DNA of 64,000 bases, from assembly GCF_003018255.1 (NCBI RefSeq), contig NZ_CP027440.1; one strand, written 5' to 3'. The notes under the pieces were generated by a model. The model was not told where the DNA came from, searched no databases, and was given only the letters and a program-made list of their open reading frames with translations. Shown in pieces: positions 25,843 to 37,120 of the stretch (its first letter is position 1; the number at the start of each line of letters is the position of its first letter). The position numbers and the translations under genes were made by a program. Source of the DNA: Escherichia coli (GTDB lineage: Bacteria; Pseudomonadota; Gammaproteobacteria; Enterobacterales; Enterobacteriaceae).

Positions 25843-25854
25843 AAATCTACTCCA

Positions 25855-25889
25855 GAAAAAAGAGGGTAGCAGCGTTAACTGCTACCCTC
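25855..25889 (-). terminator. intrinsic terminator in the gltI-gltJ spacer (SroC 3' end)
   Basis: 11-bp stem gagggtagcag / ctgctaccctc (25862-25889), loop cgttaa, U6 on the minus strand (plus A-run 25856-25861) running into the gltJ SD. Confidence 0.8.
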
Positions 25890-26015
25890 GAAGATTGTTA
25901 CCCAGCGTATTGCGGTTTTCAGGCCCGATGGGGAACGACCACCAGGCGTATAGTCTGTCCGTGCTACGTAACAATCGAGAGGGCTGGAATTTCCGCCCCT
26001 GGTTCTTGTAATTAG
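25855..26015 (-). ncRNA. sroC: SroC sRNA region (processed from the gltI-gltJ spacer); ends approximate
   Basis: gltI-gltJ spacer ending in a minus-strand intrinsic terminator; SroC is known to derive from this spacer. Confidence 0.55.
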
Positions 26016-26920
26016 TTCAGTGCCTTGTCATTCGGTTCTTTGAACAGTGCTTTCATTTCGTCTGACAGTTCGAAATTCATGTTCAGGTTTTTCGGCGGAA
26101 TTGGATTTTTGAACCACTTATCAAACCATTTTTCCGCTTCACCGGAGGTCTGCACCTGAGCGATGGTATCATCCATCAGCTTTTTGAACTGCGGATCGTC
26201 TTTACGCAACATGCAACCATAGGCTTCCTGAGACTGCGGCTTGCCGACGATTTCCCAGTTGTCTGGTTTCTTCGCTTTCGCACGTTCACCGGCCAGCAGA
26301 GCATCATCCATCATAAAGGCAACGGCACGACCGCTTTCCAGGGTACGGAAAGAGTCACCGTGATCTTTGGCGCTGATGATGCGCATATTCATTTTTTGCT
26401 CTTCATTCAGTTTGTTGAGCAAAACTTCAGAGGTGGTGCCGGAAGTGACGACTACGGCTTTGCCTTTCAGGTCGGCAAAATCTTTGATATCGCCGCCCTT
26501 TTTGGTCAGCAGGCGCGTACCGACCACGAAAATAGTGTCAGAGAAAGCCGCCTGTTTTTGGCGTTCGGCATTGTTGGTGGTAGAACCGCATTCAAAATCG
26601 AAAGTGCCGTTTTGCAGCAGTGGAATACGGTTTTGTGAGGTGATCGGAATCAATTTCACCTGTAAGTCTGGTTTGTTGAGTTTCTTTTTCACTGCTTCAA
26701 CAATGGCGTTGGAGTAATCCTGCGAGTAGCCCACCACTTTTTGCTGATTGTCGTAATAAGAGAAAGGTACTGAAGATTCACGGTGACCGACGACAATCAC
26801 GCCGTTTTTGGCGATTTTGTCCAGCGTACTGCCTGCTGCCGGGGCGGCGTCATCTGCCTGTGCCAGTCCTGCGGAAAGCGCCAGGGCCAGGATTGCTGTG
26901 GCAGGTTTACGTAATTGCAT
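26012..26920 (-). CDS. gltI: glutamate/aspartate periplasmic binding protein GltI (302 aa)
   Basis: Track ORF is N-extended; known start MQLRKPATAILALALSAGLAQA at 26920 with SD AAGGAG. Confidence 0.93.
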   Translation of the reverse strand: MQLRKPATAILALALSAGLAQADDAAPAAGSTLDKIAKNGVIVVGHRESSVPFSYYDNQQKVVGYSQDYSNAIVEAVKKKLNKPDLQVKLIPITSQNRIPLLQNGTFDFECGSTTNNAERQKQAAFSDTIFVVGTRLLTKKGGDIKDFADLKGKAVVVTSGTTSEVLLNKLNEEQKMNMRIISAKDHGDSFRTLESGRAVAFMMDDALLAGERAKAKKPDNWEIVGKPQSQEAYGCMLRKDDPQFKKLMDDTIAQVQTSGEAEKWFDKWFKNPIPPKNLNMNFELSDEMKALFKEPNDKALN

Positions 26921-26963
26921 ATCCAACTCCTTTATCTTCTGCGTTAAGAACGCATGGATACCC

Positions 26964-26984
26964 GTTGTGAGTGTTTGTGTTGTT
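26964..26984 (-). promoter_or_regulatory. C/A-rich element in the gltI 5' UTR, candidate GcvB pairing site
   Basis: mRNA sense AACAACACAAACACUCACAAC about 45-65 nt upstream of the gltI AUG. Confidence 0.5.
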
Positions 26985-27374
26985 ATCATCTGCAACTTTA
27001 TTGTGCAGTGTTGTGCTTGTTAGGTAACATTTAGTTTGGCTAAATGTAAAGATATTGCTGTTTTATTGTTTGTTTTTGCGAGATGCGCCGCACCATTCCG
27101 AAGCAAAATTCTTAAATCGCACCTTTTTGGTGCTACCGCTGATTTGTGGTGGTGCAACCCGGTTGCGTCGCGGCTGATTTCATTGCTTACACAGTAAATA
27201 AAGCAACTTACATGCCAAAAAATACTTATAGGTGAATTAATTACGATTGTAATGTTAGGCTGAAATAGTCATATTTCGGACAGGGTTATCTTTTCGGCAT
27301 GGGACGTTTGCCGGGATGATAACTGCACACGGGAAAAATGCTTTTTACCTGTCTTTTCAAGGAAGAATCACCTT

Positions 27375-29252
27375 ATGTCTGCATCTTCGGTTAAGCCGTT
27401 AAATGTTCAATTACCCGCAATAACCCTTATCCTTTTTGCGCTCTGTGTTGGGATATTTTGTTACCTCGCACAATGGATGAGTTATGAAGAAGTCGATCAA
27501 TCCGCACTTATCCATCTCGGTGCTAACGTTGCTTCTCTCACGTTGTCGGGTGAATCCTGGCGCTTATTGAGCAGTGTCTTTCTGCACAGCAGTGTTTCTC
27601 ATTTGCTGATGAATATGTTTGCACTCCTGGTGGTGGGGGGAGCGGTGGAACGTATTCTGGGGAAATGGCGACTCCTGATTATCTTGTTATTCTCCGGCAT
27701 CTTTGGTGGGCTGATCAGCGCCTGTTATGCGTTACGCGAAAGTGAGCAGATAGTCATCAGCGTTGGGGCATCCGGGGCAATTATGGGAATAGCGGGCGCT
27801 GCGATAGCAACACAGCTTTCTTCAGGTGCGGGTACACACCATAAAAACCAGCGGCGAGTATTTTCTCTGTTGGGTATGGTGGCGCTGACACTGTTGTATG
27901 GTGCCCGGCAAGCAGGAATAGATAACGCTTGCCACATTGGCGGCCTGATTGCGGGGGGCGCGTTGGGTTGGCTGAGTGCGCGTTTAGTTGGGCAAAATCG
28001 GCTCGTTACGGAAGGCGGGATTATTGTTGCGGTCACTCTTCTTCTGACCGGGACTATCTGGTTTGTGCAGCAGCAGATTGATGAATCAGTTTTACAGGTC
28101 AGGCAAAGCCTGCGTGAAGCGTTTTATCCGCAGGAGATTGAACAAGAGCGACGACAAAAAAAGCAGCAGTTAGTGGAGGAGCGCAACGCCCTCAGGGAAA
28201 CATTATCCGCTCCGGTAAGTCGTGAGCAGGCCAGTGGTGATTTACTCGCTGAGATTGCCGATATCCATGATATGGCGATCAGTCGGGATGGTAATACGTT
28301 GTATGCCGCAATTGAAAACACCAACAGCATTGTTGTTTTCGACCTCGGACAAAAGAAAATCCTGCATACCTTTACAGCGCCCATAGCGAAAGAAAAGTCA
28401 GTCAAACATTGTGGTGGCTGTAAAGATCAGGGCGTCAGATCGCTGGCATTAAGCCTGGATGAAAAGTTGATTTATGCGACTTCATTTGAAGCGAATGCAG
28501 TATCGGTCATTAACGTGGCGACGGGGGAGATTATTCAGTCGATTACCACCGGCGCCCATCCTGACAGCCTTATCCTCTCGCGTGATGGCACAAAAGCCTG
28601 GGTGATGAATCGCACCAGTAATAGTGTGTCAGCCATTGATCTGGTGACTTATCAGCATGTGACGGATATCCCGCTGGAGAAATACGACGGGACGGGGACG
28701 AGCGGTAAACCAGGCGCCTGGGTTATGGCACTTTCCCCGGATGAAAAAACATTGTTGATACCCGGTATGGTCAGAGGCGACATTGTACGCATCAATACCA
28801 TCACGCATCAGAAAGAAGACTTTCCCACAGGTGATGCGCGTGGTATCGTTTCTGCGATGGGATTCCGACCAAAAAATGGCGAGATTATTTTTGCCGATAG
28901 CCAGGGGATTTCACGTATAAGCGTAGGGGATCAACAAGCCAGCATTATGACGCAATGGTGTAGCAGGAGCGTTTATTCCGTTGAGGGTATTAGCCCGGAC
29001 GGTCAATATTTAGCGTTGGTGTCATATGGCCTGCAAGGTTATGTCATCCTGCTCAATATTAATGCCGGGCAGATTATTGGCGTTTATCCTGCCAGCTACG
29101 TTAATCACCTTCGTTTTTCAGCGGATGGTAGAAAGATATTTGTTATGGCGAAGAACAGGTTAATCCAAATGGACAGGACGCGCTCGCTTGATCCGCAGGC
29201 AATTATTCGGCATCCCCAATATGGCGATGTGGCTTGTATCCCTGAACCGTAA
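27375..29252 (+). CDS. rhomboid-family intramembrane serine protease fused to a C-terminal beta-propeller-like repeat domain (625 aa); accessory gene
   Basis: ATG 27375; GlpG-like TM2 H71/H76/N80 then GGAVE; GASG with Ser133 (nt 27771-27773); CHIGG with His187 (nt 27933-27935); predicted 7th TM helix; C-terminal [L/I/F]S-x-DG-type repeats. Confidence 0.8.
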   Translation: MSASSVKPLNVQLPAITLILFALCVGIFCYLAQWMSYEEVDQSALIHLGANVASLTLSGESWRLLSSVFLHSSVSHLLMNMFALLVVGGAVERILGKWRLLIILLFSGIFGGLISACYALRESEQIVISVGASGAIMGIAGAAIATQLSSGAGTHHKNQRRVFSLLGMVALTLLYGARQAGIDNACHIGGLIAGGALGWLSARLVGQNRLVTEGGIIVAVTLLLTGTIWFVQQQIDESVLQVRQSLREAFYPQEIEQERRQKKQQLVEERNALRETLSAPVSREQASGDLLAEIADIHDMAISRDGNTLYAAIENTNSIVVFDLGQKKILHTFTAPIAKEKSVKHCGGCKDQGVRSLALSLDEKLIYATSFEANAVSVINVATGEIIQSITTGAHPDSLILSRDGTKAWVMNRTSNSVSAIDLVTYQHVTDIPLEKYDGTGTSGKPGAWVMALSPDEKTLLIPGMVRGDIVRINTITHQKEDFPTGDARGIVSAMGFRPKNGEIIFADSQGISRISVGDQQASIMTQWCSRSVYSVEGISPDGQYLALVSYGLQGYVILLNINAGQIIGVYPASYVNHLRFSADGRKIFVMAKNRLIQMDRTRSLDPQAIIRHPQYGDVACIPEP

Positions 29253-29329: not shown

Positions 29330-30868
29330 TTAATGTTTACGTGCTCGCAGACTCATCAGCACAGCTGCAAAACCAAACAGTGCCGTCAGCACCCACAGCG
29401 GCCAGTTGCCGGTACGTGCGTACGGTGTGAGTCCGGTAGTCGGCGTCACGTTAGTGGTTAACACCTCGCGGGTGAACTGCGGGATCATCGCCTGAATCTC
29501 ACCCTGCGGGCCAATCACCGCCGTAATGCCGTTGTTGGTGCTGCGCAACAGTGGGCGCGCCAGCTCCAGCGCACGCATTCGCGCCATCTGGAAGTGCTGC
29601 CATGGACCAATAGACTTACCAAACCACGCATCGTTGGAGATAGTCAGCAGATAGTCGGTATCCGGGCGGAAGTTATCGCGCACTTGCTCGCCGAGAATGA
29701 TTTCGTAGCAAATGGCCGCAGTAAGTTGAATGCCATTCAACGACAGCGGTGGCTGAATATATGGTCCGCGGCTGAATGAAGACATCGGCAAATCAAAGAA
29801 CGGTGCTAACGGACGCAGTATCGACTCCAGTGGGACAAACTCGCCAAACGGCACCAGATGGTTTTTGTTATAGCGATCGGCTGATTCATAGCTGTACGGT
29901 GCGCCTTTACCCAGTGTGATGATGGTGTTGTAGGTATCGTAGCGGTTCTGTTTATTGAGACGCGCGTCGACAATCCCGGTGACCAGCGAGCTCCCTTTAT
30001 CGCGCAACTCACCGTCCAGAGCTTTGAGGAACGGTTGCTGATTAATTTCCAGATCGGTTATCGCCGACTCCGGCCAGATAATCAACGATGATTTGCCCAT
30101 CAGCGGTGCCGTTGCGTTGTAGTATATCTTCAGCGTATTAAGTAGCTGGTCTCCGTCCCATTTCAGCGATTGCGGAATATCGCCCTGAACCATCGAAACC
30201 TGAATAGTTTTTTCCGGTTGCGGGGTAAACCACTGGATGTAACGCAGCGGGAAGGGAAGGGCAAACAGCACGACGGCCACCACCAGCGGACGCCAGTTGC
30301 GTTTGACCAACGCCAGTGCCAGCAGGCCGCTAACCATCATCAGCAGGAAGTTAATGGCTTCCACGCCCATTATCGGTGCCAGCCCTTTTAACGGGCCATC
30401 AATCTGGCTATAGCCGAACTGTAACCACGGGAAGCCTGTTAGTACCCAACCGCGCAGAAACTCGGTCACTTGCCAGAGAGCAGGGGCGGCAATCGCCACG
30501 CGCAGCCAGGTGGTTTTCGGCCACAGACGCGACAGCACGCCAGCAAACAGTCCGGTATACAGCGACAAATACGCCGCCAGCAGTACCACCAGGAAGATGT
30601 TAACCGGGCCAGGCATTCCGCCAAAGGTCGCGATGCTGACATAGACCCAGTTAATACCGCTGCCAAAGAGGCCAAATCCCCAGCAAAAGCCAATAGCGGC
30701 AGACTGGAGTGGACGGCGGTTAAAGGTCAACGCCTGAAGCCCCATCAGCGAAATAATCGCCGCAGGCCAGACGTCGTAAGGAGAGAAGGCCAGCGTTCCG
30801 CAGGCACCGAATAATAACGCCAGCAGCAGGCGAATGCGCTGGCGTTCAATTAATGAGGCAAAAGCCAT
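29330..30868 (-). CDS. lnt: apolipoprotein N-acyltransferase Lnt (512 aa)
   Basis: ORF track; recognised sequence. Confidence 0.95.
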
Positions 30869-36416: not shown

Positions 36417-36491
36417 TGGCTGGGGTACGAGGATTCGAACCTCGGAATGCCGGAATCAGAATCCGGTGCCTTACCGCTTGGCGATACCCCA
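36417..36491 (-). tRNA. glnX: tRNA-Gln (anticodon CUG), 75 nt
   Basis: Full match to the tRNA-Gln cloverleaf with CCA end; anticodon loop UUCUGAU. Confidence 0.95.
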
Positions 36492-36528
36492 ACTGGGTGC
36501 ACTTACAAGGTAAGCGTCTTGAATAAAT

Positions 36529-36603
36529 TGGCTGGGGTACGAGGATTCGAACCTCGGAATGCCGGAATCAGAATCCGGTGCCTTACCGCTTGGCGATACC
36601 CCA
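36529..36603 (-). tRNA. glnV: tRNA-Gln (anticodon CUG), 75 nt
   Basis: Identical copy of the preceding tRNA-Gln(CUG). Confidence 0.95.
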
Positions 36604-36651
36604 ACAAATTGGTTTTTGAATTTGCCGAACATATTCGACACATTCAGAATT

Positions 36652-36728
36652 TGGTGGCTACGACGGGATTCGAACCTGTGACCCCATCATTATGAGTGAT
36701 GTGCTCTAACCAACTGAGCTACGTAGCC
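36652..36728 (-). tRNA. metU: tRNA-Met elongator (anticodon CAU), 77 nt
   Basis: Match to GGCUACGUAGCUCAGUUGGUUAGAGC...CCA, anticodon loop CUCAUAA. Confidence 0.95.
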
Positions 36729-36743
36729 AGATTGTTTCTTCGA

Positions 36744-36818
36744 TGGCTGGGGTACCTGGATTCGAACCAGGGAATGCCGGTATCAAAAACCGGTGCCTTA
36801 CCGCTTGGCGATACCCCA
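36744..36818 (-). tRNA. glnW: tRNA-Gln (anticodon UUG), 75 nt
   Basis: tRNA-Gln body with anticodon loop UUUUGAU. Confidence 0.95.
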
Positions 36819-36852
36819 ATAACCGGGCGGTGAACCGCTTATTCGAAGAATA

Positions 36853-36927
36853 TGGCTGGGGTACCTGGATTCGAACCAGGGAATGCCGGTATCAAAAACC
36901 GGTGCCTTACCGCTTGGCGATACCCCA
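36853..36927 (-). tRNA. glnU: tRNA-Gln (anticodon UUG), 75 nt
   Basis: Identical copy of the preceding tRNA-Gln(UUG). Confidence 0.95.
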
Positions 36928-36950
36928 TCCGTACAACGCTTTCTGGTGAA

Positions 36951-37035
36951 TGGTGCGGGAGGCGAGACTTGAACTCGCACACCTTGCGGCGCCAGAACCT
37001 AAATCTGGTGCGTCTACCAATTTCGCCACTCCCGC
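36951..37035 (-). tRNA. leuW: tRNA-Leu (anticodon UAG), 85 nt
   Basis: Long-variable-arm class II tRNA, anticodon loop AUUUAGG, CCA end. Confidence 0.95.
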
Positions 37036-37043
37036 AAAAAAGA

Positions 37044-37120
37044 TGGTGGCTACGACGGGATTCGAACCTGTGACCCCATCATTATGAGTGATGTGCTCTA
37101 ACCAACTGAGCTACGTAGCC
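37044..37120 (-). tRNA. metT: tRNA-Met elongator (anticodon CAU), 77 nt
   Basis: Identical to metU; first tRNA of the operon. Confidence 0.95.

Follow-up and report, generated by a model that had tools for sequence, protein, structure and literature searches.

Control of gltI, which encodes a protein that binds Glu and Asp in the periplasm, has been described in Salmonella, where a C/A-rich element about 45 nt before the AUG is both the target of the R1 region of GcvB and a translational enhancer (PMC3879156, PMC7534054, after Sharma 2007). Removal of the C/A element abolishes GcvB control and lowers translation, and the element can be transferred as an enhancer (PMC3879156, PMC7534054, PMC4474525). 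Repression in vivo that depends on GcvB and Hfq is verified for Salmonella. In Escherichia coli, gltI is listed as an R1 target with support from RIL-seq, CLASH and MAPS (PMC9299463), and GcvB lowers the level of gltI mRNA in an RNase E-dependent manner (PMC11347164). Compensatory-mutation tests of the GcvB pairing at the gltI site in E. coli K-12 were reported to be inconclusive (PMC11347164).

On the level of transcription, the gltI operon has been stated to possess sigma-70 and sigma-54 promoters (PMC9731577). The Salmonella ortholog of the sigma-54 promoter, TGGCACGTCTATTGCTTT, is bound by sigma-54 according to ChIP-chip and has been assigned to NtrC (PMC3844500). For E. coli K-12, an NtrC ChIP-seq peak is on record at 688381-688461 in old coordinates (PMC4066584), and gSELEX placed peaks of both RpoN and NtrC in the insH-lnt interval (PMC8743547). 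K-12 also carries an IS5 element upstream of gltI (ybeJ), as reported by Zinser et al. 2003, whom PMC9731577 cites. The marginal induction of SroC on nitrogen limitation in K-12 has been blamed on this insertion, and strains of O157 and O111 do induce (PMC9731577).

We have compared these systems with the region upstream of gltI in a 64,000-nt stretch of E. coli DNA (contig NZ_CP027440.1), here called the window, in which the gene order is gltL-gltK-gltJ-sroC-gltI (minus strand), an ORF of 625 aa (plus) and lnt (minus). The gltI coding sequence (26012-26920, minus strand) was identified by its SBP_bac_3 domain (E 1.8e-29) and is annotated as gltI in RefSeq. Its true start is the ATG at 26920-26918, which has AAGGAG ahead of it; a longer, TTG-started version in the ORF list was rejected as an artefact. 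Together with the ATG of the 625-aa ORF at 27375, it bounds a 454-bp spacer (26921-27374). An earlier note on this DNA had given the coordinates and sequences of the spacer, of a C/A stretch and of a palindrome, all of which agreed with the window sequence. A segment of 701 bp around the spacer finds matches in 5423 of 5426 complete E. coli genomes, with 100% identity to strain 104 from chicken. For comparative analyses we used 82 Enterobacteriaceae gltI upstream sequences, and 24 other sequences picked from these 82 were aligned. An Rfam search of the spacer gave no match at gathering thresholds, and at E values up to 5 it returned only a meaningless HOTAIR_2 hit. Elsewhere in the window, Rfam detected sroC at the 3' end of gltI (25854-26016, 172.6 bits), a cspA-type thermoregulator leader (4602-5050) and, on the minus strand, seven clustered tRNA genes (36420-37120).

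The picture that emerges is that of a layered and largely already described control region of gltI(-sroC-gltJKL), next to which some 155 bp go with a rhomboid gene that is specific to Escherichia. For this multi-layer statement as a whole we see about an even chance of being correct, whereas its GcvB and NtrC/sigma-54 parts, taken alone, can be held with high confidence. The GcvB target, the sigma-54 promoter, the binding of NtrC and the effect of IS5 in K-12 are each backed by our analysis or by the literature.

The C/A-rich element AACAACACAAACACUCACAAC is located at 26964-26984 on the minus strand, that is, at -64 to -44 from the AUG; AACAACACAAACACTCACAAC is the reverse complement of 26964-26984. 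In the gltI upstream alignment it coincides with the Salmonella element AACAACAUCACAA at -57 to -45. The two 5' UTRs have in common the end of the element 44-45 nt before the AUG, an AACAACA...UCACAA core, the flanking hairpins and the Shine-Dalgarno sequence, and both are strongly complementary to R1. Escherichia has an element that exceeds the Salmonella one by about 8 nt (AACAACACAAACACUCACAAC vs AACAACAUCACAA), which makes the predicted GcvB duplex longer, too. The earlier note had suggested that the stretch is of the kind bound by the G/U-rich region of GcvB, and had proposed a duplex prediction as a check. Using gcvB of MG1655 as the query, we obtained an R1 duplex that covers 26963-26996 with -33.9 kcal/mol and ranks first among 4264 tiles of 60 nt from both strands of the window (tile mean -17.1, sd 4.0). 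Since the margin over the next tiles (-32.8 and -32.2 kcal/mol) is narrow, duplex energy alone is weak evidence, and it is the orthology with the Salmonella site, which has been verified, that carries the argument for a GcvB site. Predicted GcvB pairing stops at -40 to -45 in most of the 82 sequences. The GcvB reading is right, but it is a rediscovery of what was already known.

In the leader, outward from gltI, the Shine-Dalgarno sequence would be followed by a hairpin, the unpaired C/A element and a second hairpin. In the minimum free energy fold of the 96-nt leader, AUAACAACACAAACAC is unpaired between the two hairpins. The Shine-Dalgarno sequence AAGGAG (26927-26932, minus strand) is almost invariant in the 82 sequences. 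Between it and the C/A element lies hairpin 2 (26933-26960, minus strand; AUGCGUUCUUAACGCAG core), with a predicted energy of -8.0 kcal/mol (z -4.55) and a six-pair stem that shows compensatory changes across genera. Hairpin 1 (CUGCA...UGCAG; 26987-27010, minus strand) has weak energy support (z -1.98), and the main evidence for it is that the stem is swapped for a different one, CUCGC...GCGAG, in Enterobacter-type genera. According to this arrangement, the G/U-rich R1 of GcvB would pair with the unpaired C/A element at -64 to -44 and mask the translational enhancer, whereby GltI synthesis would fall.

The principal known transcriptional control of gltI, which the earlier note had missed, consists of a sigma-54 promoter and NtrC sites at 27089-27217. 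The sigma-54 promoter TGGCATGTAAGTTGCT (27202-27217, minus strand; -24 GG at 27216-27215, -12 GC at 27204-27203) is the only exact match in the window to the canonical pattern TGGCAY-N5-TTGCW. Its transcription start is predicted near 27191, which results in a leader of about 270 nt. Of 81 sequences scanned, 80 contain the pattern TGGCAY-N5-TTGC, and where this is no more than 300 nt from the ATG its position is about -297. Two other sigma-54-like sequences, CTGCAC-N7-TTGCA at 26990-27008 and TGGTGC...TCGCA near 27080-27096, were rejected because the GG-to-GC spacing is wrong.

Downstream of the sigma-54 promoter there are three NtrC-like sites. S1 (GCAACCGGGTTGCACCA, 27150-27167) is conserved, and when the published K-12 ChIP-seq peak is transferred through the K-12 locus it falls on S1 and the sigma-54 promoter. 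S2 (CGCACCTTTTTGGTGCT, 27118-27134) has three mismatches to TGCACCA-N3-TGGTGCA and a perfect GCACC-N5-GGTGC core, and S3 (TGCTTCGGAATGGTGCG, 27089-27105) is conserved across the orthologues. In the window alone, the number of NtrC-like patterns is not above chance. At least one such site occurs within 160 nt downstream of the sigma-54 promoter at 78 of 80 loci, and the 250 nt upstream are free of them at all 80. Unlike the usual enhancers, which precede their promoter, these sites lie in the transcribed leader, at about +22 to +105, or 40-110 nt downstream of the -12 element. As enhancers are position-independent, this location does not exclude an enhancer mechanism. Accompanying these sites, the distal leader hairpin TGCACAATAAAGTTGCA (gltI strand, 26991-27007) fits the NtrC consensus with three mismatches. 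It may represent a fourth, weak NtrC site, whose left half CTGCAC is conserved across genera.

In several respects this arrangement resembles glnAp2 and glnHp2, with which it shares canonical -24/-12 elements, several sites of the TGCACCA-N3-TGGTGCA type about 30-35 bp apart, and published occupancy by NtrC and sigma-54. It differs in that all conserved NtrC-like sites of gltI are downstream of the promoter and none is upstream. Moreover, the candidate sigma-70 promoter of gltI (see below) lies downstream of the NtrC sites, which is the reverse of the glnAp1/glnAp2 order. Functionally, the sigma-54 promoter about 297 nt before the ATG and the three NtrC sites would bring about NtrC-dependent induction under nitrogen limitation.

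Compared with K-12, the window strain has no IS5 at this locus, so that gltI adjoins its promoter block, NtrC sites and sigma-54 promoter without interruption. The insertion point in K-12 corresponds to 27020-27023 of the window, where the TTAG target site is found that is duplicated on both sides of the K-12 element (insH3; PMC9731577). The K-12 IS5 occupies 3719-4922 of the K-12 locus; it lies within the candidate -10 element discussed below, at a distance of 4 bp from the palindrome, and its transposase gene points towards gltI. With this insertion, the palindrome, NtrC sites and sigma-54 promoter of K-12 are severed from gltI. The palindrome is not needed for the sRNA layer, because K-12 still shows GcvB-dependent changes of gltI. 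The only K-12 5' end that we found for gltI, in Table S1 of Kim 2012, maps to -52 (window 26972) with two reads, inside the C/A element; it may be a processing product. In the literature searched we found no transcription start for a strain other than K-12. There is also an Escherichia-specific sigma-70-like sequence at 26995-27023, CTAACA-17-TAAAGT, which is the best gltI-proximal match in the window sequence (PWM score 7.0). It survives the K-12 insertion because CTAA is the duplicated target, and it could be the basal promoter of K-12.

Between the NtrC sites and the leader lies the stretch 27020-27104, the most conserved part of the gltI upstream region in the 82 sequences. Our literature search turned up no operator described upstream of gltI, and this block is apparently without an assignment. 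It contains the 8-5-8 palindrome ACATTTAG-N5-CTAAATGT (27027-27047) with the loop tttgg, which the earlier note had described as a perfect inverted repeat and as operator-like for a dimeric regulator. The repeat is indeed perfect in the window sequence. Yet its symmetry is not kept in the orthologues: all eight pairs match in only five of the 82 sequences, all from Escherichia, whereas 37 have 7/8, 28 have 6/8, nine have 5/8 and two have 4/8 (one sequence, with a 20-nt segment, was left unscored). Substitutions in other genera are one-sided and uncompensated, and the left arm varies far more than the right. On the left, the usual form is ACATTAAG and that of Citrobacter ACATTCAT, and the right arm reads CTAAATGC in several genera. 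When the 454-bp spacer was shuffled 5000 times with its dinucleotides preserved, 8.6% of the shuffles contained at least one equal palindrome (8-nt arms, loop of 0-10 nt), and for this reason the palindrome is weak when taken by itself. In the whole window there are 70 such perfect inverted repeats, or about 30 distinct sites once overlapping registers are merged. That the palindrome is a repeat or the end of a mobile element was rejected, since the 40-nt segment that includes it is single-copy per genome; this segment is present in 5423 of 5426 E. coli genomes.

A more probable source of the symmetry is a promoter. Because a standard sigma-70 scan of 26800-27500 found no promoter, we built our own PWM models over the 82 orthologous regions. 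Nearly invariant are TTTACA and TG(T/C)TAACAA, which are separated by 18 nt and thus have the geometry of a sigma-70 -35 and an extended -10 element; this model is found in 75 of the 82 sequences. In the window, the candidate -35 TTTACA (27045-27050, minus strand), invariant in nearly all 82 sequences, contributes its last three nucleotides as the outer palindrome bases. The candidate extended -10 (27021-27029, minus strand) would be composed of TG (27029-27028), one further nucleotide and TACCTA (27026-27021), where other genera have TGTTAACAA. Upstream lies a conserved, UP-element-like A-rich tract (GCAAAAAYAAACAATAA..., 27053-27079, minus strand). We propose that the conserved block is a sigma-70 promoter made up of the A-rich UP-like tract, the -35 TTTACA, an 18-nt spacer, TGn and a weak -10. 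The palindrome would then fill the last three nucleotides of the -35 element and the whole spacer.

In this layout the candidate matches extended -10 sigma-70 promoters with an UP element, as the near-consensus -35, the TGn one base before the -10 and the A-rich tract upstream are all conserved. It departs from them in a -10 without T at -7 and in an 18-nt spacer that is unusually conserved. Scored by element against hexamers at 17±1 nt with A at -11 and T at -7, TTTACA has 5/6 consensus positions, the spacer is 18 nt long, TG is present, and TACCTA/TAACAA offers A at -11 but no T at -7; the score of the whole model is modest (4.1 bits). Conservation falls just 3' of TAACAA, where a structurally conserved hairpin begins, and this fits a transcript 5' end near TAACAA. 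The sequence CACAAT (27000-27005) was considered as a conserved -10 and rejected, as it is not conserved outside Escherichia. As a separate observation, the A-rich tract contains AACAATAA (27063-27070), which in the long sigma-54 leader RNA would be an exact AAYAAYAA motif, the kind of motif that is bound by the distal face of Hfq.

With respect to the palindrome, the symmetry is most likely a by-product of these promoter elements, because its outer ACA...TGT can be put down to TTTACA and, opposite to it, the TGT of the extended -10. That the symmetry is perfect rests on one Escherichia-specific base (TTTAG, not TTAAG). From the pattern of conservation we infer both the position of the sigma-70 promoter and this origin of the palindrome, and to the latter we give about the same chance of being right as of being wrong. 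The dyad symmetry noted earlier is real, but it is probably no regulator site of its own, and an operator is less likely than a by-product of promoter elements. Conservation of the spacer speaks against the by-product reading. The spacer of the candidate promoter is almost as conserved as the -35 element, and promoter spacers are normally not conserved. A conserved spacer together with an imperfect dyad of 11-nt arms (9/11 as read from the consensus) is what a bound protein would produce.

For this reason, the operator deserves serious consideration, although we regard it as rather unlikely. The palindrome, or the longer dyad TTTACATTWAG-N5-CTAAATGTTAA, would be bound by a dimeric regulator that is new to gltI. 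Since the dyad lies across the -35 element and spacer of the proposed sigma-70 promoter of gltI, such a protein would be expected either to repress or, bound in the spacer, to activate. The placement over core promoter elements is typical of operators. Furthermore, the whole block, spacer and loop included, is about 90% conserved across the 82 Enterobacteriaceae sequences, 6-7 of the 8 symmetric positions are kept in most genera, and the element is single-copy in virtually every E. coli genome searched. On the other hand, the lack of compensation, the inequality of the arms and the frequency of equal palindromes among shuffled spacers weaken this reading, and because the loop is conserved almost like the arms, the conservation lacks a dyad pattern. 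The literature search yielded no regulator site upstream of gltI besides those of NtrC and sigma-54. To our knowledge, from an unsystematic comparison with consensus sequences, the palindrome has no convincing match to those of CRP, FNR, ArgR, Lrp, TyrR, GntR, ArcA, Nac or IHF, nor to the MarA and MerR/TnrA types. Half-sites of TyrR and GntR do occur, but in everted order or with the wrong spacing. A bolder version, which we consider unlikely and somewhat more doubtful than the operator as such, is that the imperfect dyad of about 27 bp (TTTACATTWAG-N5-CTAAATGTTAA) is an Enterobacteriaceae-wide operator whose regulator, new to gltI, acts with the downstream NtrC enhancer in the sigma-54 leader.

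A sigma-70 promoter in another register appears improbable. Here an alternative -35 TAAACA within the A-rich tract (27067-27072) would pair, over 18 nt, with a -10 TACATT (27043-27048). Transcription would start near 27035-27037 in the palindrome loop, so that the right arm would form the conserved 5' terminus of the mRNA, with a symmetry due to chance. Of the conserved sigma-70 matches by PWM, this one scores highest (5.8 bits, in 61 of the 82 sequences), and the critical A (-11) and T (-7) are both found in TACATT. Its -35 region AAATAAACAAT is about 90% conserved and the stretch up to TACATT is more variable, which is the usual promoter pattern. In the window, however, the -35 is only CAAACA (3/6) and the model stays below the threshold. 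Salmonella (TACAAC) and some other genera have lost the -7 T, and the invariant TGTTAACAA is left without an explanation. Finally, it is very improbable that in the sigma-54 leader of about 270 nt the palindrome serves as an RNA hairpin, such as one that stabilises the transcript or signals its processing: the palindrome lies within the predicted sigma-54 transcript and could form an 8-bp stem (-6.0 kcal/mol, z -6.0), but this stem is weak and A-U rich and shows no covariation, as substitutions elsewhere break pairs without compensation, in contrast to the two gltI-proximal hairpins with their compensatory or replacement changes.

On the other side of the spacer, the ORF at 27375-29252 (plus strand) encodes an accessory protein of 625 aa in which an N-terminal rhomboid protease (Rhomboid domain, E 3e-29) is joined to a C-terminal beta-propeller. 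Among the fetched loci, only those of Escherichia whittamii and one further Escherichia species have a rhomboid gene at the gltI position; the gene is Escherichia-specific. The spacer had been described as a divergent control region that must also hold the promoter of the rhomboid gene. While this promoter must indeed lie there, it is confined to the last ~155 bp (27218-27374), the gene's own upstream DNA. To speak of a divergent control region overstates the shared DNA, as the sigma-54 promoter and the NtrC sites at 27089-27217 belong to gltI. Because the gltI sigma-54 promoter reaches 27217, the two genes share little or no control DNA. Within the rhomboid part, the best sigma-70-like candidate by PWM score is TTGTAA-17-CATATT (27247-27275, plus strand). 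Downstream of it, some 50 nt ahead of the start codon, what is presumably the rhomboid leader contains the imperfect inverted repeat GTTATCTTTTCGGCA / TGCCGGGATGATAAC (27285-27323, plus strand; 15-nt arms; folding as RNA at a predicted -18.8 kcal/mol, z -4.35). Relatives have GTTAAC in its left arm without compensation.

The spacer exists in three versions in E. coli, and the rhomboid gene is present in 3235 genomes. In about 60% of the E. coli genomes, a rhomboid/beta-propeller segment of about 2.2 kb (from ~27175 to ~29345) replaces about 160 bp of other strains (3366-3530 of locus L002). In an O157:H7 example without the rhomboid gene, the gltI-lnt gap is 396 bp, and the homology to the window ends near 27165-27175 and near 29345, in the last lnt codons. 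The sigma-54 promoter is kept at the same distance in the rhomboid and the O157:H7-type versions, but with a different sequence. The break points lie just beyond the NtrC site S1 and inside the last lnt codons, and owing to these positions the alleles differ in the sigma-54 promoter (TGGCATGTAAGTTGC vs TGGCACATCTATTGC) and in the C-termini of Lnt.

Taken together, the region mostly re-identifies textbook regulation, namely that by GcvB on the gltI enhancer and by NtrC/sigma-54 on gltIJKL, to which our analysis adds little. K-12, the usual model strain, has this gltI control architecture broken by IS5, and work on gltI/SroC transcription should therefore turn to non-K-12 strains, of which that of the window is one. 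A residual point of interest is that the NtrC-like sites are located downstream of the sigma-54 promoter in every genus examined. As the gltIJKL mRNA is also the source of the SroC sponge, the residual points bear on nitrogen control as well as on sRNA cross-talk.
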